Source: an uncultured Planctomycetia bacterium (GTDB lineage: Bacteria > Omnitrophota > Gorgyraeia > 2-01-FULL-45-10). From it: a stretch of 64,000 bases of DNA. Location of the stretch: NCBI GenBank assembly GCA_964433975.1, contig CAYSSS010000001.1, positions 7,989 to 71,988 of the forward strand, in the 5' to 3' direction. A program made the position numbers and the translations under genes. This document shows positions 17,426 to 32,585 of the stretch, piece after piece. Under the pieces are notes generated by a model. It was not told where the DNA came from, ran no database searches, and saw only the letters and a list, made by a program, of their open reading frames with translations. Each line of letters starts with the position of its first letter. Position 1 is the first letter of the stretch.

Positions 17426-17429
17426 CAAT

Positions 17430-17999
17430 ATGTCAGAAGACATCGTAAAAGGTTACCAAGATCGCCTTGTTGATTGCATACAGTCCTTTGACTGGTTGCC
17501 GGTAAGACAACTTACAGAGAAGATTCTCTCTGTTCGTAAAGATGGCGGGAGAATATTTTTGTGCGGCAACGGCGGAAGCGCTGTCAACGCTATGCACATA
17601 GCGAATGACCTATTATGTCTTAGGTCAAAGACAGGTAAGGCAGGAGTTAACGCTGCTGCGTTATCGGCTAACCAGGCTATTTTGACTTGCTTGGCCAACG
17701 ATATCGGTTATGAGAATATCTTCTCTTTTCAATTAATGAATTCAGGTAAAAAGGGAGATATTCTTATAGTTCTTTCCGGAAGTGGCAATTCTCCCAATGT
17801 TTTAAATGCATTGAAAGCAGCTAAGGGGATAGGGATTTCAACATGTGCTATCTTAGGGTTTGACGGAGGCAAGTGCCTAAAATTAGCGGATATCGTTATG
17901 CATTTTCCAATAAACGATATGCAAATAGCAGAGGACCTGCAGCTTATAGCCGGACATATGTTAATGCAATGGCTTGCGAAGGATATGGCTGATGATTAA
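17430..17999 (+). CDS. gmhA: SIS-domain sedoheptulose-7-phosphate isomerase-like protein
   Basis: 189 aa. RIFLCGNGGSAVNAMHIANDL, NDIGYENIFSFQL, GDILIVLSGSGNSPNVLNALKAAK and GFDGGK, collinear with E. coli GmhA motifs. A GGTGGAG RBS lies 9 nt upstream. Confidence 0.75.
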   Translation: MSEDIVKGYQDRLVDCIQSFDWLPVRQLTEKILSVRKDGGRIFLCGNGGSAVNAMHIANDLLCLRSKTGKAGVNAAALSANQAILTCLANDIGYENIFSFQLMNSGKKGDILIVLSGSGNSPNVLNALKAAKGIGISTCAILGFDGGKCLKLADIVMHFPINDMQIAEDLQLIAGHMLMQWLAKDMADD

Positions 18000-18999
18000 G
18001 GTACGCGAAAAGATAGCTGTGTTAGGTAGCAACTCCTTTTCCGGGGCAAGTTTTGTGGCGCATTGCCTTTCTTTGGGAATAGAAATATTGGGCATAAGCC
18101 GCTCATGCCAGCCGGCGAAAGCATTCTTGCCGTACGAATGGGACAATATGAACAAGTCAGGCTTATTCAGGTTCGAACAGCTTGACATGAATCGCGATAC
18201 GGATAAGATCGCCGACGGCATAAATAAGTTTCATCCGGATTATATCATTAATTTTGCGGCGCAAGCCATGGTGGCTCAAAGCTGGGAGCATCCGGAGCAT
18301 TGGTATCAGACCAATGTTGTTGGTAACGTGAAGATTCATAATAAAATAAAGGATTTTAATTTTTTAAAGAAATATGTGCATGTTTCAACTCCGGAAGTAT
18401 ATGGCAATTGCGCAGGGAAAGTAACCGAATCGATGTCGTTTAATCCAAGCACGCCTTATGCCGCTTCAAAGGCAGCTTGCGATCTGCACCTGCGAACATT
18501 CTTTAATCATTATAAATTTCCGGTGGTTTTTACGCGCGCGGCGAATGTCTATGGGCCGGGGCAGCAGCTTTACAGAATAATCCCCCGAGCTATTCTTTGT
18601 ATAAAGCTTGGCAGGAAACTGCAGCTGCACGGCGGCGGGCATTCATCGCGTTCTTTTATTCATATAAGGGATGTGGCAACGGCCACTTTGAAGATCGCGC
18701 AAAAAGGGAATGTTGGAGAGATTTATCATATATCCACATGCTCGTATATTTCCATAAAGAAATTAGTGAAATTGATATGCGAAATCATGAAAGCGGATTT
18801 TACAAAACTTGTTAAAATTGCAGACGAGAGGCCGGGTAAAGACGCCGCATATTTATTGGATAGCGGTAAGCTGCGCAGGGAGTTAGGCTGGTCGGATATC
18901 ATAGGTTTAGAAGTCGGCATACGCGAGACCATAGATTGGGTAAATGATAATTTTGAAGAGTTGATAAAGCAACCCGTTGAATATGTTCATAAAGAATGA
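17992..18999 (+). CDS. Extended SDR, NDP-sugar 4,6-dehydratase-like
   Basis: KIAVLGSNSFSGASFV, HVSTPEVYG (TPE where RmlB-type dehydratases have TDE), YAASKAACDL (YxxxK), and NVYGPGQ. The ATG lies within the last codons of gmhA. Confidence 0.7.
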   Translation: MIKVREKIAVLGSNSFSGASFVAHCLSLGIEILGISRSCQPAKAFLPYEWDNMNKSGLFRFEQLDMNRDTDKIADGINKFHPDYIINFAAQAMVAQSWEHPEHWYQTNVVGNVKIHNKIKDFNFLKKYVHVSTPEVYGNCAGKVTESMSFNPSTPYAASKAACDLHLRTFFNHYKFPVVFTRAANVYGPGQQLYRIIPRAILCIKLGRKLQLHGGGHSSRSFIHIRDVATATLKIAQKGNVGEIYHISTCSYISIKKLVKLICEIMKADFTKLVKIADERPGKDAAYLLDSGKLRRELGWSDIIGLEVGIRETIDWVNDNFEELIKQPVEYVHKE

Positions 19000-19011: not shown

Positions 19012-20553
19012 ATGCCAAGCGCAAATAAGAGTCTTCCGTTTCATGCGGCCCTACAAGTTTTTTCCAGGCTTAGGAGTGAAGGCAAAAAAATTGTCCAGTG
19101 CCACGGAACATTTGATCTCCTCCATCCCGGTCACATCGTTCATTTTGAAGAAGCGAAAGCCCTCGGTGATATATTAGTAGTGACTGTTACCTCGGAGAAA
19201 CATGTGAATAAGGGCCCGGGCCGCCCGTATTTTAATGATGAACTCAGGACAAAATATTTGTCATCCTTAGAATATATTGATTATGTGGTAGTAGTTCCTT
19301 TTCCTGCCGCCCGCGAAGCGATAGAGTGCGTCCGGCCGCATATATATTGTAAGGGCAAGGAGTATGAGGACCCCAAGATTGATATAACGGGCAATATTTA
19401 TGATGACATTCAAGTGGTGAAAAGATTAGGCGGCCGGGTGCATTATGTAGGCTCGGTTGTATTCAGCTCAACAAAGCTGCTCAATAACCATTTTGAAATT
19501 CATCCGTCACAAATGAAAGAATTCTGTAAAAAGTTGGCGGCCAAATATACGCCTGAGCGGTTCAGGGAGATAGTGGATGGTTTTAGAGATCTGAAAGTTT
19601 TGATCATCGGGGATACGATCTTTGACCGGTATTCTTCGGTCAAAGTTCAGGGGCTTACTTCTAAGAACCGTATCATCTCCACAAGATTTTTATTTGAAGA
19701 TATGCAGGCGGGGGGTGCCTTGGCGGTACTACGCCACGTAAAACAGTTCACACCTAACATTAAATTTATAAGCATGGTAGGCACAGAGGAATGGGTAGAG
19801 CCGGTTTTAGCGAAATATGTAAGCCTAGAAGAAGACGGAATAGTTCGCAGTCCCGATTTTACCACTATCATCAAGCAGCGCTTTGTTGAGCCGCTTCAAG
19901 AGGGGAAGGAGCTGTCCAAGCTCTTCTCTATTAATGTGATCAGAGAGCAGTATTCAAACGAAAAAACCATAACTTTGGCTTGTGATATTATCGATGGTTG
20001 TATAAAAGATTACGATTTAGTCATGGTAATGGATTTCGGGCACGGCTTTATGCAGGAAAGCGTTCGCGAGCTTGTTCAGAAGAAGGCACCCTTTCTCGCA
20101 CTTAATTGCCAGACCAATAGTTATAACCATGGTTTTAATATAATCGACAAGCAATACCGCCGCTCAGATTCATTCTCCCTGGATGAAACAGAACTGACCC
20201 TGTCTTGCGGCCAACGGAACATAAGTTTTTATGAAGAATTGAAAAAGCTGCATCATAGGCTCTCCGCCAATTATGGCTGGTTAACCCGTGGCGGCACAGA
20301 TACGATTGGCATAAAAACCGGTGAGCCGGAGTGTGAATGCATGTCTTTTGAGCAAACCGTTGTTGATACCGTGGGTGCCGGAGACGCCTTTTGTTCCGTA
20401 GCTTCTTTGGCGGCCGCAAAAGGCCTTCCTATAGACCTTGCTACTTTTATGGGGCAGCTGGCGGGAGCGCAGGCAGTCCGGATTATCGGCAACGCCGATT
20501 CTATCAAAAAGGACAAATTATTAAAAGGCGGGATGGCTTTACTTAGTTTCTAA
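19012..20553 (+). CDS. Bifunctional nucleotidyltransferase (N, cytidylyltransferase fold) / PfkB sugar kinase (C); HldE(RfaE)-like with inverted domain order
   Basis: N-terminus: CHGTFDLLHPGHIVHFEEAK (HxGH) and VVTVTSEKHVNKGPGRP. C-terminus: KVLIIGDTIFDRY, AGGALAV, and DTVGAGDAF (PfkB signature). 513 aa. Confidence 0.75.
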   Translation: MPSANKSLPFHAALQVFSRLRSEGKKIVQCHGTFDLLHPGHIVHFEEAKALGDILVVTVTSEKHVNKGPGRPYFNDELRTKYLSSLEYIDYVVVVPFPAAREAIECVRPHIYCKGKEYEDPKIDITGNIYDDIQVVKRLGGRVHYVGSVVFSSTKLLNNHFEIHPSQMKEFCKKLAAKYTPERFREIVDGFRDLKVLIIGDTIFDRYSSVKVQGLTSKNRIISTRFLFEDMQAGGALAVLRHVKQFTPNIKFISMVGTEEWVEPVLAKYVSLEEDGIVRSPDFTTIIKQRFVEPLQEGKELSKLFSINVIREQYSNEKTITLACDIIDGCIKDYDLVMVMDFGHGFMQESVRELVQKKAPFLALNCQTNSYNHGFNIIDKQYRRSDSFSLDETELTLSCGQRNISFYEELKKLHHRLSANYGWLTRGGTDTIGIKTGEPECECMSFEQTVVDTVGAGDAFCSVASLAAAKGLPIDLATFMGQLAGAQAVRIIGNADSIKKDKLLKGGMALLSF

Positions 20554-20572: not shown

Positions 20573-21511
20573 ATGAAGATACTTGTTTTAGGAGGCTGTG
20601 GTTTTGTGGGAACAGTTTTAACTCATACACTTTTAGCCAAAGGGCATTGTGTTACTGTAGTAGATATACAGTGGTTTGGTAATTACTTGGCTGAGCATAA
20701 AAACCTCAAAGTTATTAAAGAAGATATACGCAATGTGAATAATATTCCGATGGAGGGTATAGATGCAGTTATACATCTAGCTAATATTGCCAATGATCCT
20801 TGTGGGGAATTAAATTCTAAATTGGTTTGGGAGGTTAATGTTTTAGCTACAATGCTTTTGGTGGAGCGGGCTATACGGCATAAAGTAAAACAGTTTATTT
20901 TTGCCAGTTCCGGCAGTGTTTACGGGGTTAAGGATAAGCCGGAAGTTACGGAAGATCTTTCTCTTGTGCCCATATCTGATTACAATAAGACTAAAATGAT
21001 AAGCGAGAGAGTGCTCATTAGTTATCGGGATAAGATACTGGTTCAGTGCTTAAGGCCGGCTACTGTATGCGGGTATTCTCCTCGAATGCGGCTGGACCTT
21101 TCGGTAAACATGCTGACTATCCAGGCTTTGGCTAATGGAAGAATAACAGTTTTAGGCGGAAAGCAGGTGCGCCCCAACATACATATCAAAGACATGATTG
21201 CGGTATATCTATATCTTCTCAAGGCCGGAGACAAGATAGAGGGTGTCTATAACGCAGGTTTTGAGAACATCTCCATCCTGGATATAGCAAAGAAGATAGT
21301 TAGGCAAGTACCGGCAGAGATTATCATTAGTGAGTCAAATGATCCCCGGTCATACAGGCTATGCTCAAAGAAGTTGCTTGCTACGGGGTTTAAGCAAAAA
21401 TACAGCGTTGATGATGCAATAAAAGAACTTGTAGATGAATTCCGTGCAGGCAATCTGAAAAACGAAGACAGATGGTATAATATCAGAACGATGAAGAAGC
21501 TTAAGCTATAA
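20573..21511 (+). CDS. NAD-dependent sugar-nucleotide epimerase/dehydratase (extended SDR)
   Basis: MKILVLGGCGFVGTVL, ASSGSVYG, and YNKTK (YxxxK). Confidence 0.8.
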   Translation: MKILVLGGCGFVGTVLTHTLLAKGHCVTVVDIQWFGNYLAEHKNLKVIKEDIRNVNNIPMEGIDAVIHLANIANDPCGELNSKLVWEVNVLATMLLVERAIRHKVKQFIFASSGSVYGVKDKPEVTEDLSLVPISDYNKTKMISERVLISYRDKILVQCLRPATVCGYSPRMRLDLSVNMLTIQALANGRITVLGGKQVRPNIHIKDMIAVYLYLLKAGDKIEGVYNAGFENISILDIAKKIVRQVPAEIIISESNDPRSYRLCSKKLLATGFKQKYSVDDAIKELVDEFRAGNLKNEDRWYNIRTMKKLKL

Positions 21512-21517
21512 TAAACC

Positions 21518-23029
21518 ATGAAAATAAAAAAAATAAAAAAGATAGTTTTAATTCAGCCGAATTATGCCTGGATGACAAAAAGAACCTGGTGCCATCCGCC
21601 TTATACATTAGCCCTTCTGAAGGCCGTAGTTAACGACCGTGCAGAAACGATAGTATTTGACCCTAATTTTGCGAATCTTTCCGAAGAAGATGTATCATTC
21701 GTGTTGAAAAAGATAAAGCCGGACCTCGTAGGCATCACATCTGTCTCTACGGAGTATTACAACACATCAAAATTACTTACTTCGCTTGTTAGAAGAGCGC
21801 TCCCTGAGGCTGTGATCATTTTTGGCGGTGTTATTCCGACAGTATTTTTGGAAGAGGCTATGAAAGATAAAAATATCGATTACTGGATGATCGGTGAGGG
21901 CGAGGTTTCTTTCCCAAAGCTGATAGATGAGTTGCAGAAAGAGAATCCGGAATTATCTACTATCAAGGGCCTTGCGTATTGGCAAAAAGGCAAGACCATA
22001 GTGAATGATAATGTTTTTTTAGAGGATCTGGATCAGGTACCGTTCCCTGACTATTCCAACATAATAGGTAGTAGAAAAATGAGCAAGGTTTCCATGCATG
22101 ATTATGGGAATGTAGTTTTTAAATACGCACCGGGTATTTTGGCTAAAAAATATCCATCAGCCATGACCATAACTACCCGTGGATGCCCTTTTAAATGTAT
22201 ATTCTGCGCAGGCAAGACCGTAAGCGGTCAGAGGGTACGATTCAGGAGCGCGGAAAACGTGCTTGCCGAGATAGATCTTTTATATAAACAGGGAATCAAA
22301 GAGATAATATTCCTTGATGATCATTTTCTAGCCAACAGAAAACGCGCCATGGATATTATGAACGGCATAATGGAAAGAAAGTATGATATGGCCTGGCGAT
22401 GCTGTAATGTAACAGCATGGTTATTGGACAAAGAGATATTGGAAGTTATGTATAAAAGCGGATGTGACTTTCTTTTGGTATCGCCTGAATCCGGCAATCA
22501 ATATGTTCTTGACAACATAGTGAAAAAACCGCTTAAATTAAATAGCCTTCCCGGGATTCTTAATATAGCCAAATCGATAGGCTTTAGCGTAATGGTAAAT
22601 TTCGTATTCGGGTTTCCGGGGGAGACATGGGACCAGATAAGAGATACAATCAAGTATGCTGAGAAACTCAATGTCGACATAGTCAATTTTCATATTGCCA
22701 CGCCACTGCCTAAGACCGAATTGATGGAAATATGCCTGCGCGAGAAGCTACTTCCCGGAGATTACGTTCGGAATGTATCAAAATATTCCGGATACGGCAA
22801 GGGGCTTATTACGACTAAGGAGTTTACTCCTGTTGAATTGGAGGTCTTAAGGTCTTTTGAATGGGATAGAATAAATTTTTCTTCAGAAGAGAGAAAGAAG
22901 TCCATTATGCGGCTTAATGGCATAACGAGGGAAGAGTTAGAAAACTGGAGGGTCAATACCCGACGCAATCTAGGCGTAAATAGCCTTATTAGAAATATTA
23001 TGCACACTTCGAGCATGAACAGTGCTTGA
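21518..23029 (+). CDS. Cobalamin-binding-domain (class B) radical SAM enzyme
   Basis: N-terminal B12-type domain (IVLIQPN...LVGITSVST...IIFGGVIPT...IGEGEVSF), then RGCPFKCIFC. 503 aa. Confidence 0.8.
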   Translation: MKIKKIKKIVLIQPNYAWMTKRTWCHPPYTLALLKAVVNDRAETIVFDPNFANLSEEDVSFVLKKIKPDLVGITSVSTEYYNTSKLLTSLVRRALPEAVIIFGGVIPTVFLEEAMKDKNIDYWMIGEGEVSFPKLIDELQKENPELSTIKGLAYWQKGKTIVNDNVFLEDLDQVPFPDYSNIIGSRKMSKVSMHDYGNVVFKYAPGILAKKYPSAMTITTRGCPFKCIFCAGKTVSGQRVRFRSAENVLAEIDLLYKQGIKEIIFLDDHFLANRKRAMDIMNGIMERKYDMAWRCCNVTAWLLDKEILEVMYKSGCDFLLVSPESGNQYVLDNIVKKPLKLNSLPGILNIAKSIGFSVMVNFVFGFPGETWDQIRDTIKYAEKLNVDIVNFHIATPLPKTELMEICLREKLLPGDYVRNVSKYSGYGKGLITTKEFTPVELEVLRSFEWDRINFSSEERKKSIMRLNGITREELENWRVNTRRNLGVNSLIRNIMHTSSMNSA

Positions 23030-23047: not shown

Positions 23048-23656
23048 ATGACGAAGCATATAGGACTAGATTTCGATAATACGATCATTACCTATGATGA
23101 GGTATTTCATAAATACGCTCTTAAGTCAGAATTGATTTTAAATGAAGTGAAAAAGAATAAGCAGGTTATTCGTGACGCTATCAGGGCTTTGCCTGAAGGC
23201 AACGATAAGTGGACGGAGCTTCAGGGTTTTGTGTACGGCAAGCATGTGTGTGAGGCTCGACTGACCCGGGGTGTTGAAAGTTTTTTTGAGGCGTGCAAGA
23301 GAAATTCAGTCAAGGTCTCAATAATTAGCCACAAGACTTTGTATCCGGCCTCAGGGCCCCGCGTTAACCTTCATACGGCAGCAAAGAGATGGCTTAAGGA
23401 TATGGATTTTTTATCAAAGTTCGGCTTGATGGAAGGGGACATTGTATTTGAGGAAACCCTTGAAGGAAAATTGGGGCAGATCACCAGGAAAAAATGCGCC
23501 TATTTTATAGACGACCTGAAGGAAGTCTTGCTACATCCGGATTTTCCGAAAGGTGTCGGAAAGATACTTTACAGTGAAGAGGCGGACGATGCTCTTCCGG
23601 CGGATATTACGATTTTTAAGGATTGGGATGAAATCACTAAACACTTTTTTGGTTAA
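23048..23656 (+). CDS. HAD-superfamily hydrolase (probable sugar-phosphate phosphatase)
   Basis: Motif I IGLDFDNTI, ISHKT (motif II-like), and a late FIDD acidic motif. 202 aa. Confidence 0.6.
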   Translation: MTKHIGLDFDNTIITYDEVFHKYALKSELILNEVKKNKQVIRDAIRALPEGNDKWTELQGFVYGKHVCEARLTRGVESFFEACKRNSVKVSIISHKTLYPASGPRVNLHTAAKRWLKDMDFLSKFGLMEGDIVFEETLEGKLGQITRKKCAYFIDDLKEVLLHPDFPKGVGKILYSEEADDALPADITIFKDWDEITKHFFG

Positions 23657-24704
23657 TTCAAATAATGCCGGAGCGGATATCGCTGTTCTTTTTGACGGAT
23701 TATTAAAGGCGAAATTCAGCGAAAGCGTGGCAAGTGTAGATAAAATTCCAGGAGGCATCAATAGCGAGGCGTATAAGATCTTAACGGGTCAAGGTAATGA
23801 GTATTTCGGGAAGGTTTATCGGATCAGTAAAGGCGACAGCAGAGACAGGTTAGCTACAGAATTTTCGGGGCTTACTTATTTGTGGCAGAATGGCATTAAG
23901 AATATACCGGAACCTTTATTGGCAAGCGAAGAATACGGCTTTGCGATTTATAGATATATAAAAGGATCGAGTATAAAGCCCGGTGAGATAACCGCGGCCG
24001 ATATTGATGAAGCCGCTGAATTCGCAACCCGGATCCATTCGTTAACCCGCGTAGAATCTGCCGATAATCAGCCGGTTGCTTCCGAGGCATGCTTTAGTAT
24101 CCGGGAGTACATAGATTGTGTTAGTGGTCGGATAGATAAATTTAAGAAGGTTATTAAAAAAGATACCATCTCTGCTTCGCTTGGCGCATTTCTGGAAGAT
24201 GAATTCATACCTTTTTTTAGTGGCGTCAGGAAAGCGGCGGAAAGAAAAGCCGAAAAGTCCGGCATTGATATCGATGAAAAGCTTCATAAGAGCAAGCGGA
24301 CGTTAAGCGTATCTGATTTTGGATTCCATAATGCTGTAAGATCGGAGTCCGGCAAACTTTTTTTCTTCGATTTTGAATATTACGGGTGGGATGATCCCGC
24401 GAAGATGATAACTGATTTTTATCTTCAGCCGGCCGTCCCGGTCCCGTCAAGTTACAGAGAGCGCTTTTTTAAAGAAGTGCGAAAAAACTATCGCGAAGGG
24501 AATAGCCTGGATCTCCGGATTTCTATGATTTATCCGATACTGGGATTGAAATGGTGCCTTATAATGTTGAATGTCTTTCTTCGTATTGATGATCATGAGA
24601 GCAGTAAAGATGTACGCTTAGAAAATCTTGCGAAGGCGGTAACCAAGTTTCAAGAGATAAAGAATGAAATTGACATAAAAGCATTCCCCCTTTCTCTTGT
24701 ATGA
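23628..24704 (+). CDS. APH/choline-kinase-fold small-molecule kinase
   Basis: IPGGINSEAYKI nucleotide-loop region, catalytic-loop SDFGFHN (DxxxxN), and FFFDFEYYGWDDP (metal-binding D plus APH-type tail). The start is uncertain: ATG 23628 was chosen, and the ORF is open from 23553, overlapping the HAD gene. Confidence 0.65.
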   Translation: MKSLNTFLVNSNNAGADIAVLFDGLLKAKFSESVASVDKIPGGINSEAYKILTGQGNEYFGKVYRISKGDSRDRLATEFSGLTYLWQNGIKNIPEPLLASEEYGFAIYRYIKGSSIKPGEITAADIDEAAEFATRIHSLTRVESADNQPVASEACFSIREYIDCVSGRIDKFKKVIKKDTISASLGAFLEDEFIPFFSGVRKAAERKAEKSGIDIDEKLHKSKRTLSVSDFGFHNAVRSESGKLFFFDFEYYGWDDPAKMITDFYLQPAVPVPSSYRERFFKEVRKNYREGNSLDLRISMIYPILGLKWCLIMLNVFLRIDDHESSKDVRLENLAKAVTKFQEIKNEIDIKAFPLSLV

Positions 24705-24714
24705 GTAGAATTTT

Positions 24715-25545
24715 ATGGAGATTTTCATGGATTTGCAGAATCTGGATAAAAGGTCAATAGAATTCAGAAGGAAGATCCTCCGTATGATCGATCGCTCCCG
24801 CAGGGGGCACATCGGTTCGGCCTTTTCTATAGTGGAGATCGTGCGGGTTTTGTATGAAGAGGTGCTGCGCGTAGATCCGAAGAGACCCCTATGGGAAGAG
24901 AGAGACCGTTTCATATTGAGCAAAGGGCATGGTTGTCTTGCGCTGTATGTGGCCTTAGCCGAAAAAAAATTCATTAGTAACGCGGAACTTTCAAACTTTT
25001 GCGACTTCGATTCAATCCTCGGAGGTCACCCTCAATACGGGAAGGTTCTCGGGGTGGAGGCCTCTACAGGTTCTTTAGGACATGGACTATCCATCGGTGT
25101 GGGTATTGCCTTAAATGGGAAGATCGATAAGAGAGATTACAGGACTTTTGTTCTGCTTGGCGACGGTGAATGTAATGAGGGTTCGGTCTGGGAAGCTGCC
25201 ATGTGCGCCTCAAAACACAAACTTGATCGTTTGACAGCATTGATCGATTATAACAAGATGCAATGCTACGGCGCGACTTGCGAAGTGCAAAATCTCGAGC
25301 CTTTTGCCGACAAATGGCGCAGCTTTGGTTTTAGCGTGAAAGAGGTGGATGGGCACGACATGGCGGCGTTACACAATATTCTGAAGAATATCCCGTTCGA
25401 TACGGAAAAGCCGCAAGTCGTTATTTGTCATACTACTAAAGGCAGAGGGATACGCTCACTGGAAGGGCATGCGCCATCGCATCACAAGAGTAAGATAAGT
25501 GATGATGAGATCGAATTGTTCCTTAAGGAGCTGGAGAAAAATTAG
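24715..25545 (+). CDS. Transketolase, N-terminal (ThDP-binding) subunit
   Basis: RGHIGSAFS, FILSKGHGCLALY, TGSLGHGLS, and LGDGECNEGSVWEA...YNK (GDG...N ThDP motif). 276 aa, typical of a split transketolase. Confidence 0.85.
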   Translation: MEIFMDLQNLDKRSIEFRRKILRMIDRSRRGHIGSAFSIVEIVRVLYEEVLRVDPKRPLWEERDRFILSKGHGCLALYVALAEKKFISNAELSNFCDFDSILGGHPQYGKVLGVEASTGSLGHGLSIGVGIALNGKIDKRDYRTFVLLGDGECNEGSVWEAAMCASKHKLDRLTALIDYNKMQCYGATCEVQNLEPFADKWRSFGFSVKEVDGHDMAALHNILKNIPFDTEKPQVVICHTTKGRGIRSLEGHAPSHHKSKISDDEIELFLKELEKN

Positions 25546-26472
25546 ATGAGGAAAGCCTGCTTAAACGCAGTATATGAACTTGCCAGGCAAGATAAGAGGG
25601 TTCTATTTTTTGGATCTGATATAGCGGCCGGCACATTGGCGCAATTTCAGAAAGAGATGCCGGATAGGTATTTTATGGAAGGTGTTTCTGAAGCCAATAT
25701 CATAGGAGTGATGTCAGGCCTTGCCATGAACGGCAAAATACCGTATCTAAATACCATAGCCGTCTTTTCGACGCGCAGGTGTTATGAGCAGATCCTGCTT
25801 GACGCGGCGATGCATAATCTGAAGATTCGGATAATCGGTTCAGGCGGCGGGCTTGTATACGCGCCGCTGGGGCCCACACATCTTGCTTTTGAGGACATGT
25901 CTCTCATGAGAATCATACCTAATATGACTATAGTCGCTCCCTGCGATGCGGAAGAGATGAAACGGCTTATGCCCCGGACGCTTGATCATGAAGGGCCGAT
26001 GTATATCCGGCTTGGCAAGGGAGGGGACCCAATCGTGAGTTCTCCGGATAAGGATTTTAAGATTGGTAAAGCAATACTTATGCGTAAGGGCCGTGATGCG
26101 CTTGTTGTTAGTACGGGAGTAACGCTCAAATTGGTTTTGGATGCGGCGGAAGAATTGAAAACCAGAGGAGTGGAATTAAAAGTTCTTCACATGCATACGG
26201 TTAAGCCTATAGACCGCGCAGCCATTATGGAAGCAGCGTTTGGAGTAAAAACTATTATTACGGTGGAAGAGCATTCCGTTATCGGTGGACTCGGAAGCGC
26301 TGTGGCAGAGATCGTGGCAGAAGCCGGATTTTCGCCGGCCAAGAAATTCTTAAGGATCGGGCTTCCCGATCTATTTCCCGACAAATATGGTTCTCAAGAA
26401 AAATTAATGAATTTTTATGGTTTAACTAAAGAAAAAATAGTATCTGCTTTGTCAGGGTTCTTAAATACATAA
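25546..26472 (+). CDS. Transketolase, C-terminal (pyrimidine-binding plus C-terminal domain) subunit
   Basis: FFGSDI...FMEGVSEANIIGVMSGLA, GGLVYAPLGPTHLAFEDMSLMR, and TVEEHSVIGGLGSAV. It starts 1 nt after the N-subunit stop. Confidence 0.85.
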   Translation: MRKACLNAVYELARQDKRVLFFGSDIAAGTLAQFQKEMPDRYFMEGVSEANIIGVMSGLAMNGKIPYLNTIAVFSTRRCYEQILLDAAMHNLKIRIIGSGGGLVYAPLGPTHLAFEDMSLMRIIPNMTIVAPCDAEEMKRLMPRTLDHEGPMYIRLGKGGDPIVSSPDKDFKIGKAILMRKGRDALVVSTGVTLKLVLDAAEELKTRGVELKVLHMHTVKPIDRAAIMEAAFGVKTIITVEEHSVIGGLGSAVAEIVAEAGFSPAKKFLRIGLPDLFPDKYGSQEKLMNFYGLTKEKIVSALSGFLNT

Positions 26473-26488
26473 TAGGAGAATCAAGTAA

Positions 26489-27151
26489 ATGGCGAATATA
26501 GATTTTTTAAGCGTAATACACAAAAGTACGAAGCGCGATTATCTGGGCAGAGTAAACGAATATCCGAAAGCGGAGGCCATCAAGAAGGCGAAGCTGTACG
26601 ATCATGATTATTGGGACGGAGATCGTAAATTCGGATATGGCGGATACAGATATGACGGAAGATGGCGTAAGGTGGCCGACTCAATAGCTGCTCATTATAA
26701 TCTGAAGGCGGGCGATCGCATTCTCGATGTCGGAAGCGGCAAAGGATTCCTTTTGTACGATCTTACGCAAGCCGTGCCCGGCATAGAGGTGAAAGGTATT
26801 GATATTTCTAAATACGCGATTCAAAATTCTAAAGAGGAAGTCCGTTCTTTTCTAGACGAAGGGAACGCTATATCTTTGCCATACAGAGATAAAAGCTTCG
26901 ATCTGGTCATATCTATAAACGCGCTTCATAATTTGTACTGTTATGATGTGGTCAAAGCGCTGAAGGAGATAGAGAGGGTCGGTAAAAAGAATAAATATGT
27001 TGTCGTTGAATCATACAGAAATGAAGAAGAGAAGGTTAACCTTATGTATTGGGTGCTGACAGGCGAATGTTTCTTTTCGCCAGACGAATGGAAGTGGCTA
27101 TATGATCTTGCGGGTTATAAAGGTGACCATTCATTTATATATTTTGAATAG
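26489..27151 (+). CDS. Class I SAM-dependent methyltransferase
   Basis: Motif I RILDVGSGKGFLLYDL and post-I GIDIS. The N-terminal DHDYWDGDRKFGYGGYRYDGRW segment is typical of a glycan-locus MTase family. Confidence 0.75.
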   Translation: MANIDFLSVIHKSTKRDYLGRVNEYPKAEAIKKAKLYDHDYWDGDRKFGYGGYRYDGRWRKVADSIAAHYNLKAGDRILDVGSGKGFLLYDLTQAVPGIEVKGIDISKYAIQNSKEEVRSFLDEGNAISLPYRDKSFDLVISINALHNLYCYDVVKALKEIERVGKKNKYVVVESYRNEEEKVNLMYWVLTGECFFSPDEWKWLYDLAGYKGDHSFIYFE

Positions 27152-27162
27152 GAGTCATATAT

Positions 27163-28191
27163 ATGAAAGCGGCAATTTTAGTTGAGCAAAAAAAAGCACT
27201 CGTAATAGCTGATATTAATTTGCCATCAGAGCTTCAATACGGGCAAGTTTTGGTCAAGATTGTATGCAGCGGCGTGTGCGGTTCGCAAATAGGTGAGATA
27301 AACGGGATTAAGGGGCCGGATAAATTTCTGCCGCATTTACTTGGGCATGAAGGTGGAGGTGTAGTTTCCGACATAGGGCCTGGCGTTACTAAAGTTAAAA
27401 AAGACGATCACGTCGTTCTTCATTGGCGTAAGAGTACCGGCATTGAATCACCCGTACCAAAATATAAGTGGGGCAGCAAAATAGTGAATGCGGGATGGGT
27501 TACTACTTTTAACGAATATGCGGTGGTGTCGGAAAATAGGATCACTGCTATAGATAAGGATATTGATTTTGAAATAGCCGCATTAATGGGATGCGCAGTG
27601 ACAACGGGATTGGGCGTTATAACCAACGATGTTAAGCTTAGGACGGGCGAATCGATCGCTATATTTGGTTCCGGCGGCATAGGCCTGAATATGATCCAGG
27701 GCGCTTCGCTCGTTTCGGCAGATCCTATAATAGCGGTCGATATTTATGATCACAAACTTAAATTAGCAAAAGAATTCGGAGCCACTCATATTATAAATTC
27801 GTCAAAAACAGATGCTAAGAAAGAGATCTGTAATATTGTAGGCAGGTGCGGGGTAGACGCGGCGGTTGATAACACAGGTAATGTCAATGTGATAAATCAG
27901 GCCTATGAGGTAACGTCGGATACTGGCAGGACTGTTTTAGTCGGCGTTCCGCAAATCGGAGAGAAGATCAGTATTTACTCGCTTCCGTTACATTTTGAAA
28001 AGAAAATCTATGGCTCGCACGGTGGCGGAGCAAGCCCGTCCTTCGATATTCCGAGATATTTGAACCTTTATAAAAAAGGCGCATTGAAATTAAAAGGTAT
28101 GATAACGGATTCTTTCCGCTTAGATGAGATCAATAACGCTATAGCGGGAATAAGGAAGGGTAGTATCATAAAGTGTATAATAAAGATGTGA
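27163..28191 (+). CDS. Zinc-dependent medium-chain alcohol/polyol dehydrogenase
   Basis: CSGVCGSQ and GHEGGGVV (catalytic Zn ligands), and GSGGIGLNMIQ (NAD-binding GxGxxG). 342 aa. Confidence 0.8.
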   Translation: MKAAILVEQKKALVIADINLPSELQYGQVLVKIVCSGVCGSQIGEINGIKGPDKFLPHLLGHEGGGVVSDIGPGVTKVKKDDHVVLHWRKSTGIESPVPKYKWGSKIVNAGWVTTFNEYAVVSENRITAIDKDIDFEIAALMGCAVTTGLGVITNDVKLRTGESIAIFGSGGIGLNMIQGASLVSADPIIAVDIYDHKLKLAKEFGATHIINSSKTDAKKEICNIVGRCGVDAAVDNTGNVNVINQAYEVTSDTGRTVLVGVPQIGEKISIYSLPLHFEKKIYGSHGGGASPSFDIPRYLNLYKKGALKLKGMITDSFRLDEINNAIAGIRKGSIIKCIIKM

Positions 28192-28193
28192 AG

Positions 28194-29816
28194 ATGGGCA
28201 ATAAACCGTCACTGTTACTTATGACTTCGCGCTCTGCCGGTGGATTTAATATAGCGCCGCCGCTGGGTCTATATAGACTGAAAAACTTCATACAACAGGA
28301 TGTGTCGACCTGCGATATCCTGGATTTCGATCTGGAAAATGAAAATGAATATCTCGGTAAGGCAGAACAGGGAAAGTATGATATTATCGGCATGAGCGTA
28401 TCGCATATTAACATGGTAATGGATTTGGAAACGCTGGTGAGGTTTCGACATGCCGCACAGGTCAGTGGAAAACGAGTTTTATTTATTGCAGGAGGCCAAG
28501 AAGCAGCCCTCAATTATACCCAATGGCTTCAAAGCAATCTTGTCGATGTGATTTTTTTGGGTTTCGCAGAGCGCTCTCTTCAAAAATTTTGCTCTAATTT
28601 GGGCAGGATCGGGAAAGAGGCGCCGCTAAAAGATATAGCGAAAGACATTAAAGGTTTGTCATTTTGCGCAGAAACGGGCGAGGTATTGCATATACCATCC
28701 AATGTATTAACTGAAGAAGAATTTGAATTATTGTCTTTTGATAATGTCATGACAATGGATATTCCATATGAAATTTACTGGAATAAAATGCGTTTGGAAC
28801 GGGCAAGGATCAATACTAACACCGAATTTGTTTTTAAGACAGCTCGGCTTTACACCAGTAGTCACTGTCCAAGAAGATGCGGCTTTTGCAGTTCCCAATC
28901 CTTTATTACGTCTTCTCAAAAGAATGTCTCTCCCATATTTTCAATAACCGCTGAGCAAATTTATGAAATTGTTAAGCACTATGCCCGACGTTATGAAGCA
29001 GAAGGATTTCTTTTTAGCGACGACGATTTTCCCATAGGAACTCTTGATGGAATAGAGAGGGTTAGACGTTTTTGTAGACTAATTATTGACGCCAAACACA
29101 CAGGCAATCTTCCAGACAAGCTTAAATTTTTTTGCCAATCACGAGTTGCAGATTTTCTCGATAATAAAACAGTGAGGCATGATCTTATCAAGCTTATGAG
29201 AGAGGCGGGATTCGATAACACCGGTTTGGGCATCGAAACATTATCTAACCGCCTTCTAAAAGCTCCGTCTGTCAATAAAACAGGAGTTACCGTTTCTGAC
29301 TGCAAGGCAGTTATTGACGCACTTCTGGAAGAAGGAGTTATTCCCATAATCTTCATTATCATAGGCATACCGGAAAGTTCTGTTGGCGAGCTAGAGGAAA
29401 CCATATGTGAAGTCGCAGATTATATAAGAAAAGGTGTGGATGTTGCTGTTACAGCTAGGCTCAGAGTTAACCCAGGCTCTCCGCTCTGTGAATGTGGTAG
29501 TTATCCGATAAGTTCCACCGCATGGGTTAGTCCAGTCAATGGTAAAACCCTATTGGTAGCCGATTACTTTATTCCATGGAATCCAATAATCGAAATGATT
29601 ATTGGCAAAGTTCAGGAAAAAGCCGAAGAAGAAGTGCGGCTCCTCTGCGCCAAATATGGGTGGAATAAAAGCATGGCTCCTAAGACTATCGTAGGAATCG
29701 CGACACTTATTGCTACCGCAAGACTTATCAATAGAGAAGATATTGTCGAAAAATTCATTGTTTTACTGCGCGATATAGTTGATAATCAATCAAGCTTATT
29801 GAGAGAAAACAGATAG
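28194..29816 (+). CDS. Cobalamin-binding-like-domain (class B-like) radical SAM enzyme
   Basis: N-terminal Rossmann-like domain (LLLMTSRS...IIGMSVSH...LFIAGGQEA), then SHCPRRCGFC. 540 aa from ATG 28194, which lies 2 nt after the ADH stop. Confidence 0.7.
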   Translation: MGNKPSLLLMTSRSAGGFNIAPPLGLYRLKNFIQQDVSTCDILDFDLENENEYLGKAEQGKYDIIGMSVSHINMVMDLETLVRFRHAAQVSGKRVLFIAGGQEAALNYTQWLQSNLVDVIFLGFAERSLQKFCSNLGRIGKEAPLKDIAKDIKGLSFCAETGEVLHIPSNVLTEEEFELLSFDNVMTMDIPYEIYWNKMRLERARINTNTEFVFKTARLYTSSHCPRRCGFCSSQSFITSSQKNVSPIFSITAEQIYEIVKHYARRYEAEGFLFSDDDFPIGTLDGIERVRRFCRLIIDAKHTGNLPDKLKFFCQSRVADFLDNKTVRHDLIKLMREAGFDNTGLGIETLSNRLLKAPSVNKTGVTVSDCKAVIDALLEEGVIPIIFIIIGIPESSVGELEETICEVADYIRKGVDVAVTARLRVNPGSPLCECGSYPISSTAWVSPVNGKTLLVADYFIPWNPIIEMIIGKVQEKAEEEVRLLCAKYGWNKSMAPKTIVGIATLIATARLINREDIVEKFIVLLRDIVDNQSSLLRENR

Positions 29817-29826
29817 GAAAATAATC

Positions 29827-31044
29827 GTGCTAACAGGACAGAAATGCAAGCTTGCCCTTCACGGCGGCGCCCGAGTCCGCAAGAGGCCCATGCCTCCGCG
29901 CTTGGCTTTTGGCCCCGCCGAGCTCAGCGCCATTAATGCGTTGTTTAATCATTACAGGAGCAAGAAAGCGGATTTTGGGTATCAGGGGGAATACGAGCGG
30001 TTATATAACGAAGCCTTTGTACGCTACATGGGCGTGAAAGGTTTTAGCGACGCCGTTAATAGCGGTACATCCGCTTTATATGTAGCCATAGCCGCCCTGA
30101 ACCTGGCGCCTCGTAGCCATGTTATAGTTTCGCCGGTTACGGATCCGGGCACCATAAACGCTATTATCCTGAACCGGCTTATCCCGGTCATAGCGGACTC
30201 TAGCCCCCAATCTTACAATATCGGAGTCGAAGAATTTAAGGCAAGAATTTCGAAAAAAGTAAAAGGGGCTGTTATAGTTCATATCGGAGGAAAACCAGCT
30301 CCAATAGATAAAATCTGTAATACAGCCAGAAAGAATGGAATACGTGTGGTCGAAGATTGTTCTCAATCGCATGGCGCAAAATTGAATGGCGAGAAAGTCG
30401 GCACCTTTGGCGATATAGCTGCTTTTTCCACGATGTATAGAAAAGCTCACGCAACCGGCGGGTGTGGCGGAGTTATATTTACCCGAAATAAGGAATATTA
30501 CAACATGATAAGGGCCTACGCGGATAGAGGAAAACCTTTTTTCAAGCCCGGTTTTACCGAAAAGGATCCGTCATCATTTTTGTTTCCCGCCCTCAATTTG
30601 AATATCGATGAGATATCCTGTGCCATTGGCATCAAGACCCTGGAGAAGCTCGACATCGTAATAAGAAAAAGGATCGAATTTTTAACGAAACTCGGAAGTC
30701 ATATATCCAAAAATTCAAAAGTTTGCAGGTTGGCGCAAGTATCAGTAAACGATTCGCCGTTTTTTCAGCCGATAATTATCGACACTTTAAAGATCGGTTG
30801 CTCAAAAGAGGAGTTTGCTAACGCAGTTAGGGCGGAAGGAATAGATATTAATCCCGATTATAAATATGTTATCAGCGAATGGAAATGGGTCAAGCCATAT
30901 TTAGCCGATGATTATATGAGTGAGAACGCAATCAATTTTAGAAAGAGTTCATTTAACCTCCTTTTTAATGAAAACTACAAAGAGAGAGAGTTGGGGGATG
31001 TTATTAGCGCTATTTTAAAGGTTGAAGAATCATATGCTTTATAA
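29827..31044 (+). CDS. DegT/DnrJ/EryC1/StrS-family PLP aminotransferase (StsC/BtrS-like N-terminus)
   Basis: N-terminal LALHGGARVR, NSGTSALYVAI, EDCSQSHGA, and FSTMYRKAHATGGCGG (Schiff-base Lys region). GTG start preceded by AGGAAA. Confidence 0.75.
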   Translation: MLTGQKCKLALHGGARVRKRPMPPRLAFGPAELSAINALFNHYRSKKADFGYQGEYERLYNEAFVRYMGVKGFSDAVNSGTSALYVAIAALNLAPRSHVIVSPVTDPGTINAIILNRLIPVIADSSPQSYNIGVEEFKARISKKVKGAVIVHIGGKPAPIDKICNTARKNGIRVVEDCSQSHGAKLNGEKVGTFGDIAAFSTMYRKAHATGGCGGVIFTRNKEYYNMIRAYADRGKPFFKPGFTEKDPSSFLFPALNLNIDEISCAIGIKTLEKLDIVIRKRIEFLTKLGSHISKNSKVCRLAQVSVNDSPFFQPIIIDTLKIGCSKEEFANAVRAEGIDINPDYKYVISEWKWVKPYLADDYMSENAINFRKSSFNLLFNENYKERELGDVISAILKVEESYAL

Positions 31045-31062: not shown

Positions 31063-31776
31063 ATGAAAAAATGTTTTAGCAACGCTTCATCCGTTCGCGC
31101 AAAAAGTATTTACAAGAACATCAAGATTGAAAAGCACGTGAAGGGGTTTATGCTCGGCGAATTCAATTCTTATCATTTGATATCCGATCCTAAACGTGTC
31201 GGTTTTCTTTTTGCCAGGTATAAATTTGTGGCAAAGATGCTGGAGGGATATGAACGCGTATTGGAGGTAGGCTGCCAGGAGGGGTTGGGGTCATTACTGG
31301 TCGCAAAGTCCGTCAAGAAGCTTGTTGCGACCGATTTTTATAAGCCACACATAGAGAGTTGCGTAGGAAATACAAGTAGTTTTGCTAAGAATATTGAATT
31401 CAGGTGGCACGATATTATCGGAGGGCCGATTGTAGAACATTTTGCAGGCGCCTATTCCTTGGATGTTTTGGAGCATATAGATCCCAAGCAAGAGGATTTA
31501 TATATGGCCAATGTTGCTTTAAGCCTTGAAGAAAAAGGCGTATTTATAATCGGAACGCCTTCTTTAGAATCTCAAAAGTATGCCTCTTCGGCATCAAAAG
31601 AGGGACATATAAATTGTAAGAGCGGAGAGGGGCTGCGCCTCTTTTGCCAGAACTATTTCTACAATGTTTTTATGTTTGGCATGAATGACGAAGTTATTCA
31701 TACGGGTTTTCTGCCCATGGCGCACTATCTGTTTGCCGTTTGCGTTGACCCAATAAAAGGGAAGATTAATAAATGA
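31063..31776 (+). CDS. Class I SAM-dependent methyltransferase
   Basis: Motif I VLEVGCQEGLGS, post-I ATDF, and LDVLEHI. 237 aa. Confidence 0.7.
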   Translation: MKKCFSNASSVRAKSIYKNIKIEKHVKGFMLGEFNSYHLISDPKRVGFLFARYKFVAKMLEGYERVLEVGCQEGLGSLLVAKSVKKLVATDFYKPHIESCVGNTSSFAKNIEFRWHDIIGGPIVEHFAGAYSLDVLEHIDPKQEDLYMANVALSLEEKGVFIIGTPSLESQKYASSASKEGHINCKSGEGLRLFCQNYFYNVFMFGMNDEVIHTGFLPMAHYLFAVCVDPIKGKINK

Positions 31777-32585
31777 AGGCCATTGTACCTTCCGATGTTT
31801 ATGAAGGATTTAAAAAATTAGGGATTGCAGGGGAAAGAGTTGTCATCCATTCTTCATTAAGCAGCTTCGGTGAGCTTAAGGGAGGGGCCGAAGCTCTTAC
31901 GGATGTCATTATCAGCTCCTTCAAGACGATTTTAATGCCCGTTTTTTGTTGGGATTCCGTCACGGTTCCGCCACGAGACGATAGGCCCGGGCAAAATGGA
32001 TGCGACTATTCGTTCTATGACGGTTGGGATAAGAAGCCCGTGCCATTTATAGTTGAAAATGCCGGAATAGAACGAAGCATGGGAGTTATCAGCCGCCACT
32101 TTCTTACTAAACCAAATGTCCTGCGAAGCGATCACCCTTGGCATTCATGGGCCGCCTACGGAGACAGGGCAGGGCAGCTGACCGAAGAATGCTCTTGGAA
32201 TGTGACCAATCTGCCCGTTGAGAGGTTGGCAAGTATTGGCGGACATGTTGTCTTGTTGGGAGTGGGATTAAACTCCTGCACAGCTGTTCATGTTGCTGAG
32301 GAAAAGGCCGGGCGGAATCCTTTTATCAGATGGGCGATTGATAGGAGCGGCGAAGTCAGGCGCGTAAGGGCATCGGGCTGCGCAAAGGGATTCAATAATC
32401 TTCTGCCTCTTTATGAAGACATATTCAAAAAGATATACGTGGGAGAGTGTTGTGTTTTGACAGCTCCCCTGAAGCCTTTTATTGAGCACACAAGATCGAT
32501 TATTCATTCAAATCCGGAAGTCACGCGGTGTTCTGCCAGCTGTATTAGATGCAATGACGCGATACTAGGAGGGCCGGTTGATTAG
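31773..32585 (+). CDS. AAC(3)-family (Antibiotic_NAT fold) N-acetyltransferase homologue
   Basis: VVIHSSLSSFGELKGGAEALTDVII, ILMPVF, GVISRHF, LRSDHPWHSWAAYG, and VVLLGVGLNSCTAVHVAEE, collinear with aminoglycoside 3-N-acetyltransferase motifs. ATGA overlap with the upstream MTase. Confidence 0.7.
   Translation: MKAIVPSDVYEGFKKLGIAGERVVIHSSLSSFGELKGGAEALTDVIISSFKTILMPVFCWDSVTVPPRDDRPGQNGCDYSFYDGWDKKPVPFIVENAGIERSMGVISRHFLTKPNVLRSDHPWHSWAAYGDRAGQLTEECSWNVTNLPVERLASIGGHVVLLGVGLNSCTAVHVAEEKAGRNPFIRWAIDRSGEVRRVRASGCAKGFNNLLPLYEDIFKKIYVGECCVLTAPLKPFIEHTRSIIHSNPEVTRCSASCIRCNDAILGGPVD

Follow-up and report, generated by a model that had tools for sequence, protein, structure and literature searches.

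What does a transketolase do in a gene cluster for surface-glycan synthesis? We addressed this question in a 64-kb stretch of contig CAYSSS010000001.1 from an uncultured bacterium of the Omnitrophota lineage (hereafter the window; all positions are window coordinates), which consists of a single long plus-strand series of glycan-synthesis genes and includes a transketolase split into N-terminal (TKN) and C-terminal (TKC) subunits. An earlier reading of the window from its sequence alone had described six contiguous genes around this transketolase, and all six were found where it had placed them, on the plus strand: a HAD-superfamily phosphatase of an unnamed C1-capped family (23048-23656), a kinase of the APH/choline-kinase fold (23628-24704), TKN (24727-25545), TKC (25546-26472), a class I S-adenosylmethionine (SAM) methyltransferase (MT; 26489-27151) and an NAD-type zinc-dependent alcohol dehydrogenase (ADH; 27163-28191). 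Judged by its residues and its neighbours, the transketolase is most likely a dedicated glycan-pathway enzyme and not a housekeeping copy for the pentose phosphate pathway, and the cassette is best read as a module that performs tailoring steps in a heptose-type nucleotide-sugar pathway. Our favoured account, in which the transketolase is a tailoring enzyme that adds a hydroxyacetyl unit to a nucleoside diphosphate (NDP)-4-keto-heptose with HAD and APH handling a transient phosphate, is held tentatively, at somewhat below an even chance.

The cassette genes are closely packed or overlapping. The HAD and kinase genes share 29 nt, the TKN stop codon (25543-25545) directly abuts the TKC start at 25546 (...AAT TAG ATG AGG), as had been noticed earlier, and gaps of 16 and 11 nt precede the MT and ADH genes, respectively. 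Starts for the kinase and TKN were taken from gene calls on an identical public contig (L001); the open reading frame (ORF) of the kinase opens at 23553, with 23628 as the likelier start, and that of TKN opens at 24715, the public call being 24727. Since the same block was found in dozens of independent genomes, its arrangement is far beyond chance.

An intact catalytic core and an altered substrate pocket

By their domain scores, both subunits are members of the transketolase superfamily. TKN contains the domain that binds the pyrophosphate of thiamine diphosphate (ThDP), scoring 162 bits to PF00456, and TKC contains the pyrimidine-binding (Pyr) and C-terminal domains, scoring 110 bits to PF02779 and 96 bits to PF02780; the respective gathering cut-offs are 22, 27 and 25.9. 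Among solved structures, that of the Carboxydothermus hydrogenoformans split transketolase (6yak/6yaj) is nearest, with 45% identity to TKN (241 bits) and 37% to TKC (220 bits). With this enzyme and with canonical transketolases the window enzyme shares its fold, cofactor motifs and catalytic histidines. The ThDP/metal motif LLGDGECNEG...LIDYN, which the sequence-only reading had already picked out, is present in TKN with the GDG-X(25-30)-N spacing. Equivalents of human His37, His77, His110 and His258, which bind C1-OH and C2 of the ketol, are kept in the window TKN and in 14 family members. Likewise, TKC Glu49, which aligns with the cofactor-activating Glu366 of the human enzyme, and TKC His112, the equivalent of E. 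coli His473, are invariant. Because all of these residues are conserved, dihydroxyethyl (ketol) transfer would be expected.

In contrast to the core, the region of the pocket that meets the far end of the substrate differs from that of C. hydrogenoformans and canonical transketolases, as does the entire genomic context. Four of the five residues that contact the distal sugar-phosphate in canonical enzymes are replaced in TKC (E. coli numbering: His461 to Gly, Asp469 to Leu, Ser385 to Gly and Arg520 to Lys), and Arg358 alone is kept, so that the residue set of a canonical pentose-phosphate enzyme (EC 2.2.1.1) is lacking. The altered motif, G[SN]GGG[LV]VYAPLG.TH, was present in 120 of the 120 nearest homologues, down to 60% identity.

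We considered whether the enzyme might nevertheless be ordinary, either a split transketolase that provides more sedoheptulose 7-phosphate for heptose synthesis or the sole housekeeping copy, located in the cluster by chance. Its identity to a characterised split transketolase agrees with this idea, as does a good score to the NCBIfam short-type transketolase model NF004559 (271.8 bits for TKN and 212.1 bits for TKC, against a cut-off of 488 that is set for a full-length model, the gene being split here), and sedoheptulose 7-phosphate is the precursor used by GmhA. The clade-wide replacement of distal residues, including Asp469 and His461, argues against it, as do aspects of its distribution described below. 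No other transketolase was found within the window.

The cassette is conserved in more than 15 phyla

We scanned one genome per species using two clade-specific peptide patterns. The order HAD-APH-TKN-TKC-MT was shared by no fewer than 582 species-level genomes (at least 582 loci were confirmed), which span more than 15 phyla. The best 80 loci were from Omnitrophota, Margulisiibacteriota, Nitrospirota, Planctomycetota, Verrucomicrobiota, Acidobacteriota, Chloroflexota, cyanobacteria, Latescibacterota and others, and the closest cassette among the matches listed was in an Omnitrophota metagenome-assembled genome (TKC 78% identical). The carriers include a complete genome, the Latescibacterota chromosome OZ252228.1. 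One cassette (L085, DATDTA010000015.1) lay on a contig labelled Candidatus Nanoarchaeia, which may reflect a binning error or transfer into archaea.

The neighbourhoods of homologues at 81, 75, 70 and 65% identity all yielded HAD, APH, TKN, TKC, MT and ADH genes. The earlier proposal of a dedicated glycan-pathway transketolase, which was to be abandoned if relatives lacked this neighbourhood, is supported both by the strong conservation of the block and by the non-canonical pocket. Co-occurrence was counted over 77 non-redundant species-level loci, restricted in each case to those with enough flanking sequence. TKN was adjacent to TKC in 68 of 69 loci, APH was present in 65 of 69, HAD in 62 of 69, MT in 57 of 70 and ADH in 43 of 70, while HldE-like and GmhA-like genes lay within 10 kb in 48 and 33 of 59 loci, respectively.

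A cultured carrier, Solidesulfovibrio carbinolicus DSM 3852, has the cassette on plasmid pDCAR1 (NZ_CP026539.1; L089-L091) in the order pseB-pseC-HAD-APH-TKN-TKC-MT-radical SAM-MT-RmlD-like. The TKN and TKC matches fall at about 100.6-102.4 kb of the record. The surrounding island also contains pseF and encodes a NeuB-family synthase, a Maf-like protein and glycosyltransferases, with HldE-like and SIS genes 15 kb from the cassette, and the plasmid also encodes a second split transketolase bearing the canonical motif. The island as a whole is large and of the flagellin-glycosylation type, with two different split transketolases and many radical SAM enzymes. It also contains an AAC(3)-family acetyltransferase like that at 31773-32585 of the window, and its NeuB-family synthase gene adjoins the HldE-like and SIS genes.

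These findings bear directly on the idea of an ordinary transketolase. The variant enzyme is tied to HAD-APH-MT in ~90% of loci, its S. carbinolicus copy is plasmid-borne and accompanied by a split transketolase with the canonical motif, and a central-metabolism context was absent from every neighbourhood examined. Taken together, the pocket substitutions and conserved synteny lead us to reject a housekeeping or sedoheptulose 7-phosphate-supplying role as the principal explanation, and we regard the ordinary-enzyme explanation as highly improbable.

A phosphatase-kinase pair, often fused, accompanies the transketolase

The HAD protein carries motifs I-IV of HAD phosphatases (MTKHIGLDFDNTI, SIISHK, K141 and FIDDL, respectively), and matched no Pfam or NCBIfam model. 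Its AlphaFold model (pLDDT 89.7) displays a C1-capped Rossmannoid HAD fold; Foldseek neighbours were HAD-IA-like, the nearest folds being small-molecule phosphatases. The family comprises 1,584 representatives at E <1e-10. We also considered whether it might be GmhB, a capless HAD-IIIA enzyme. It has no Hydrolase_like/PNK3P Pfam match, its model possesses the C1 cap, and six cassette loci encode a separate GmhB-like protein of their own (for example L037, 5519-6136), arguing that the cassette HAD is not a GmhB equivalent.

The kinase matched Pfam APH (PF01636) with 36 bits, and its model (pLDDT 91.4) confirms the fold. The ATP-binding lysine, the D-x-x-x-H-N loop and the D-F-E motif are present, with K62, D230, H234, N235, D248 and E250 invariant, and the motifs SDFGFHN and FDFEYYGWDDP that drew attention to this gene initially are conserved throughout the kinase family. 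Its fold neighbours were LicA, ethanolamine kinase (EtnK) and APH(9), each with a Foldseek probability of 1.0; sequence and fold searches aimed at its substrate returned only generic APH/choline-kinase neighbours. HAD and APH are fused, with HAD first, in 35 of the 150 best HAD-family representatives as well as in several cassette loci, consistent with HAD acting as a putative phosphatase partner of the APH-fold kinase.

A kinase whose nearest folds are choline and ethanolamine kinases, a phosphatase closest to small-molecule phosphatases and a pocket without residues for long sugar phosphates raise the possibility that HAD-APH-TK-MT (TK, transketolase) instead makes a small O-methylated hydroxy-carbonyl block of two to four carbons (glyceroyl- or erythrulose-type), which later becomes a substituent on an amino sugar or nonulosonic acid. 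The S. carbinolicus island, with pseB/C/F, a NeuB-family synthase, an ATP-grasp ligase and a Maf-like transferase, would suit such a product. However, the cassette occurs repeatedly inside NDP-heptose operons, straight after a 4-oxidase-like short-chain dehydrogenase/reductase (SDR), and no conserved ligase or acyl-activating enzyme accompanies it. We judge this alternative quite improbable.

The cassette follows a probable NDP-heptose module

The genes upstream of the cassette, all on the plus strand, encode the candidate source of its substrate. A GmhA-like SIS isomerase, of the type that interconverts ketose and aldose phosphates (17409-17999; Pfam SIS_2, 70 bits; NCBIfam gmhA, 128 bits against a cut-off of 209), is followed by an SDR resembling NDP-sugar 4,6-dehydratases (17974-18999; Pfam GDP_Man_Dehyd, 164 bits; NCBIfam dTDP-glucose 4,6-dehydratase, 217 bits, below cut-off), an HldE-like bifunctional enzyme (19012-20553), a further SDR (20573-21511) and a B12-binding radical SAM enzyme, a probable C-methylase (21518-23029; Pfam B12-binding and Radical_SAM), which lies between this SDR and the cassette and has copies 75-77% identical at the same position in loci L004 and L009.

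The HldE-like protein has its nucleotidyltransferase at the N-terminus and its kinase at the C-terminus (Pfam CTP_transf_like at residues 31-97, PfkB at 420-497). Correspondingly, the NCBIfam rfaE domain II model matched residues 18-156 and the domain I model residues 191-495, with 94 and 78 bits versus cut-offs of 181 and 345. The catalytic motifs HxGH and GAGD are intact; the protein departs from canonical HldE, in which the kinase is N-terminal, in both its domain order and its below-cut-off scores. Two HldE-like sequence types, ~35% identical to each other, accompany near-identical transketolase cassettes in different genomes.

For the SDR at 20573-21511, the best solved relative was 6vo6/6vo8, at 123.7 bits versus 71.5 for the next. 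We take 6vo6 (6VO6) to be Cj1427, a heptose C4-dehydrogenase. The function of Cj1427 itself is documented (PMC10680097). The SDR is probably an NDP-heptose C4-dehydrogenase that would produce a 4-keto sugar.

The transketolase occupies an interchangeable ThDP-enzyme slot

Metagenomes were searched reciprocally with an alignment of the HldE-like protein. The loci recovered share a base module, consisting of the HldE-like gene and the Cj1427-like SDR gene, followed by a variable slot and then usually by MT-ADH; an SDR of this type is the usual upstream neighbour of the slot. The slot held the present cassette, other split transketolase paralogues, E1alpha/E1beta pairs, or nothing. Pfam-confirmed E1 pairs, which are pyruvate-dehydrogenase-like, were positioned between the Cj1427-like SDR or HldE-like gene and MT-ADH (L093, 3582-5638; L117, 14752-16795; L097, 11590-13716). 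The transketolase paralogues likewise lack His461 and Asp469, are without HAD-APH, and in some cases have radical SAM or FAD oxidoreductase genes just upstream. YerE-like ThDP enzymes were also seen in L004 (2067-3854) and L006, and a further paralogue, composed of an N subunit and a 163-residue Pyr-domain protein that lacks the transketolase C-terminal domain, was seen in L165 (4006-5247), L155 (12505-13739) and L138 (17068-18260), where it still adjoins the HldE-like gene and SDR.

The residue at the Arg520 position follows the company that the transketolase keeps. Lysine accompanies HAD-APH (the present clade, L096 and L108), whereas threonine, glycine or glutamate is found where HAD-APH is absent (L103, L106 and L093), with one exception (L112) and one undecidable case (L150). 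This correlation, together with the HAD-APH fusions, points to a phosphorylated transketolase substrate, and the pairing of a kinase with a phosphatase, their frequent fusion and the presence of both Arg358 and Lys520 suggest that the substrate bears its phosphate during the transketolase step.

The sequence-only reading had offered two inferences, namely that the transketolase transfers a two-carbon ketol unit onto a keto or aldehyde sugar, or that it extends a sugar phosphate into an octulose or nonulose phosphate for the adjacent GmhA/HldE-like module. Both are possible, and with a Cj1427-like SDR just upstream and E1alpha/beta pairs in the same slot of sister loci, the evidence leans to the first. 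The second is its main rival. Stated fully, HAD would deblock a tailored NDP-sugar or sugar 1-phosphate (as RifM), APH would phosphorylate a terminal hydroxyl of the free sugar (as RifN), the transketolase would add two carbons at C1, and GmhA/HldE and a phosphatase would re-activate the resulting octulose or nonulose phosphate (as LmbN/P/K/O, with the lincosamide octose pathway as a close parallel). RifN is a ROK/glucokinase-type kinase and not of the APH fold. Several features suit this scheme: the order SDR-(DegT)-HAD-APH-TKN-TKC parallels the RifL/K/M/N-isomerase-transketolase reactions (PMC8788734), an N-terminal HAD in the fusions is fitting for consecutive steps, Arg358 and Lys520 are retained, and the GmhA-like and HldE-like enzymes, which need a ketose phosphate and are usually adjacent, score below the gmhA and hldE cut-offs. 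The slot data speak against it. Products of the same-slot E1alpha/beta pairs could not feed a GmhA-type isomerase, and neither HldE nor GmhA co-evolves with the cassette: the transketolases of L002 and L009 are ~80% identical to that of the window but their HldE proteins only 34-35%, window-type HldE also accompanies E1 pairs or no ThDP enzyme, and GmhA is equally or less frequent with the cassette than without it. In addition, extension would depend on a housekeeping nucleotide sugar for an initial activation, of which there is no sign in the window. The window encodes two nucleotidyltransferases, one of HldE type and one of RmlA type, and lacks an additional enzyme that could activate a product a second time; a single activation module weighs against chain extension and favours ketol addition to a keto sugar. 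We therefore consider reducing-end extension rather unlikely, albeit the alternative to be taken most seriously.

A proposed route to a branched nine-carbon sugar

In the favoured account, the GmhA-like isomerase and the domain-swapped HldE-like enzyme would, by homology, convert sedoheptulose 7-phosphate to NDP-heptose, and the Cj1427-like SDR, by reference to its closest solved relative, would oxidise C4 to yield NDP-4-keto-heptose. The split transketolase would take a hydroxyacetyl (glycolaldehyde) unit of two carbons from a donor, either hydroxypyruvate or a ketose, and attach it to the C4 carbonyl, the ketone of the NDP-sugar being the predicted acceptor, and the product would be a 4-C-glycolyl-branched nine-carbon sugar. 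Support for a keto-sugar acceptor also comes from pDCAR1, where pseB-pseC lie immediately upstream of HAD, as PseB likewise forms a 4-keto sugar. The methyltransferase, the ADH (or a radical SAM enzyme elsewhere), an aminotransferase and the B12-radical SAM enzymes may modify the product afterwards, with no order assigned. Relevant to the last two, the genes following ADH encode a second B12-binding radical SAM enzyme (28188-29816, plus strand; Pfam, also called on L001), which overlaps the ADH stop codon, and a DegT-family sugar aminotransferase, a user of keto sugars (29827-31044, plus strand; PF01041, 185 bits).

The HAD-APH pair might phosphorylate the substrate of the transketolase for a time and then release the phosphate, the simplest site being O7 of the heptose. 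On this speculation the tail C4(=O)-C5-C6-C7-OP would mimic erythrose 4-phosphate, with Arg358 and Lys520 holding the phosphate. Leucine could stand in place of Asp469 because C5 bears the ring oxygen rather than a hydroxyl, and Gly461 and Gly385 could leave room for the ring and nucleotide, so that resemblance of a heptose 7-phosphate to erythrose 4-phosphate would explain each of the pocket substitutions. The complete proposal, a widespread and unrecognised route to nine-carbon surface sugars in which the transketolase adds a C4 hydroxyacetyl to a 7-phosphorylated NDP-4-keto-heptose, with an often fused kinase-phosphatase pair managing the phosphate, is in our estimation unlikely to be correct in all its parts.

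Several considerations weigh against ketol addition to an NDP-4-keto-heptose. For every member of the family the mechanism rests on sequence and context, and donor, acceptor, phosphorylation site and order of steps are all inferred from these. The equation of 6vo6 with Cj1427 is our assumption. The role given to HAD-APH is a guess, and a kinase and phosphatase suit small sugar phosphates better than NDP-sugars. A DegT gene separates the SDR gene from the HAD gene in 18 related loci, and its product would compete for the 4-keto group. MT-ADH pairs also occur without a ThDP enzyme, indicating that MT-ADH need not act on a new side chain. Finally, transketolases accept ketones rarely, and the miharamycin precedent discussed below is unproven (PMC12247030).

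The methyltransferase is a fixed partner and the ADH a variable step

The methyltransferase (Pfam Methyltransf_31/11/25) was the fixed partner downstream of TKC in the counts above; its PDB neighbours were generic and uninformative as to substrate. The ADH (Pfam ADH_N and ADH_zinc_N) retains the catalytic zinc ligands Cys39, His62 and Cys144, and GSGGIG together with the Asp in AVDIYD forms an NAD-type Rossmann site. It is without the structural-zinc cysteines and still qualifies as a zinc-dependent medium-chain ADH, its nearest solved relatives being alcohol dehydrogenases of classes P/III and I/III (163 bits, PDB). The ADH is the variable step, its place after the methyltransferase being taken elsewhere by a radical SAM enzyme, a B12-radical SAM enzyme or a 288-residue unknown protein. 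The suggestion that the ADH reduces the newly added side chain was not upheld, since MT-ADH pairs exist without a ThDP enzyme and radical SAM enzymes substitute for ADH in some loci; a role as a specific side-chain reductase is unsupported. A TarJ-like ketose-phosphate reductase was likewise unsupported, the ADH being class I/III-like.

Relationship to known systems

The closest precedents in concept are the split-gene transketolases of miharamycin and amipurimycin biosynthesis, which have been proposed, without demonstration, to transfer hydroxyacetyl to a keto sugar (PMC12247030); 13 further Streptomyces candidates are credited there to Krug et al. 2024, so that the concept of a keto-sugar-branching split transketolase extends, unproven, to ~15 actinomycete antibiotic clusters (PMC12247030). 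These systems resemble the window in having split N/C subunits in a sugar-tailoring cluster that adjoin an oxidoreductase thought to make the keto sugar (PMC12247030); in our family the split gene similarly adjoins an enzyme that makes an NDP-keto sugar, namely the Cj1427-like SDR or, in S. carbinolicus, pseB. They differ in belonging to actinomycete antibiotic clusters, whereas the window family is found in clusters for surface glycans, spans more than 15 phyla that are mostly uncultured, is far more numerous, and is bound to the HAD-APH pair and heptose module, a comparison made by description only. The sequence-only reading had considered such a role undescribed for a transketolase in surface-glycan synthesis. 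The chemical concept had in fact already been proposed for miharamycin and amipurimycin. For surface glycans the statement stands to the extent that our literature search, whose coverage did not extend to most subscription journals, found no description of a transketolase in an O-antigen, capsule, heptose or flagellin-glycosylation cluster.

The E1 pairs AviB1/AviB2 and Pau11/Pau12 and the enzyme YerE are credited with, or proposed for, the addition of two-carbon branches at C4 of NDP-4-keto sugars (PMC4753412, PMC12247030). The likeness to AviB1/AviB2 and Pau11/Pau12 is that E1alpha/beta pairs fill the same slot in sister loci; in contrast to the window enzyme, these E1-like proteins and the YerE protein, which is acetohydroxyacid synthase-like, belong to other ThDP superfamilies, convert pyruvate to acetyl or hydroxyethyl branches, and have no kinase or phosphatase partners. 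The heptose module can be compared with the pathways to lincosamide octose (LmbR/N/P/K/O) and to ADP- and GDP-heptose (GmhA, HldE or HddA, GmhB and HddC), in which a ketose phosphate formed by C-C transfer undergoes GmhA-type isomerisation, anomeric phosphorylation, dephosphorylation and nucleotidylation. However, LmbR is a transaldolase that transfers three carbons, and, relative to the heptose pathways, the window HldE-like protein has the reversed domain order and the cassette HAD is C1-capped rather than GmhB-like.

The aminoshikimate pathway is similar in enzyme content, with an NDP-sugar oxidoreductase (RifL), an aminotransferase (RifK), a HAD phosphatase (RifM), a sugar kinase (RifN), a sugar-phosphate isomerase and the split transketolase Orf15A/B (PMC8788734). 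Orf15A/B cleaves aminofructose 6-phosphate in a pathway that ends in an aromatic amino acid, whereas the window encodes glycan assembly, with glycosyltransferases and Wzy. This parallel suggests a further alternative, in which HAD, APH and the SIS isomerase would make a modified ketose phosphate donor from which the transketolase removes C1-C2, leaving a shortened modified aldose phosphate. Such cleavage would draw on the same enzyme classes as the aminoshikimate front end (PMC8788734), a SIS isomerase is present, and in S. carbinolicus a NeuB-family (phosphoenolpyruvate-condensing) gene adjoins the HldE-like and SIS genes. We regard it as very improbable, given that the window and most loci lack a phosphoenolpyruvate-condensing enzyme, that a heptose made merely to be shortened is uneconomical, and that the slot is common to E1 pairs. 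Formaldehyde, 5-deoxyribose, 7-deoxysedoheptulose and phosphocholine-type pathways found no supporting gene content.

New in this work are a pocket that defines the clade, HAD-APH-MT as obligate partners, an association with a heptose 4-oxidase and with an HldE of reversed order, a slot in which ThDP enzymes are interchanged, and a very broad distribution. If a transketolase does add two carbons to an activated sugar, the known chemistry of one of the most thoroughly studied enzymes of central metabolism would be extended. Should the complete proposal with its 7-phosphate hold, this transketolase would be the first shown to accept a ketone and the first to contribute a step to surface-glycan synthesis, in hundreds of species from more than 15 phyla. 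With two-carbon addition to an activated sugar, biocatalysis would gain a natural transketolase for ketone or bulky acceptors, named as lacking in a 2025 review (PMC12247030). The cassette defines three families without a curated model, namely the variant transketolase clade, the HAD family and its kinase partner, and predicts an undescribed branched or extended surface heptose in numerous environmental bacteria, among them Omnitrophota, Planctomycetota, Verrucomicrobiota, Acidobacteriota, Nitrospirota and filamentous cyanobacteria. The cultured S. carbinolicus opens the hypothesis to direct test.

Other features of the window

The window is unusually heavily loaded with methylation functions for one glycan cluster: its methyltransferases number well over a dozen, two of them C-methyltransferases of the Methyltransf_14 family. 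B12-binding radical SAM enzymes number four, the two beside the cassette and two others at 13324-14844 and 47703-49244, and there are three radical SAM/SPASM enzymes (4425-5492, 55851-56693 and 62251-63303). Three asparagine-synthase-like amidotransferase paralogues lie in the distal cluster (45759-47660, 51530-53512 and 57847-59724); together with two formyltransferases (43246-44157 and 61318-62217) and genes resembling those for polysaccharide deacetylases, they suggest that sugars are amidated or N-formylated. Two large proteins had no Pfam match (7731-9812, 693 residues; 34690-36105, 471 residues), and a 62% identical copy of the latter is encoded immediately upstream of the HAD gene in L004 (6881-8320). 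Two SDR-type ORFs (1931-2734 and 14841-15677) matched their Pfam profiles only in part, RmlD_sub_bind at profile positions 2-150 of 287 and Epimerase at 97-240 of 240, respectively, and may be truncated, frameshifted or very divergent. The gene at 54247-55830 encodes a 527-residue fusion of a GFO/IDH/MocA oxidoreductase with a hexapeptide-repeat acyltransferase.

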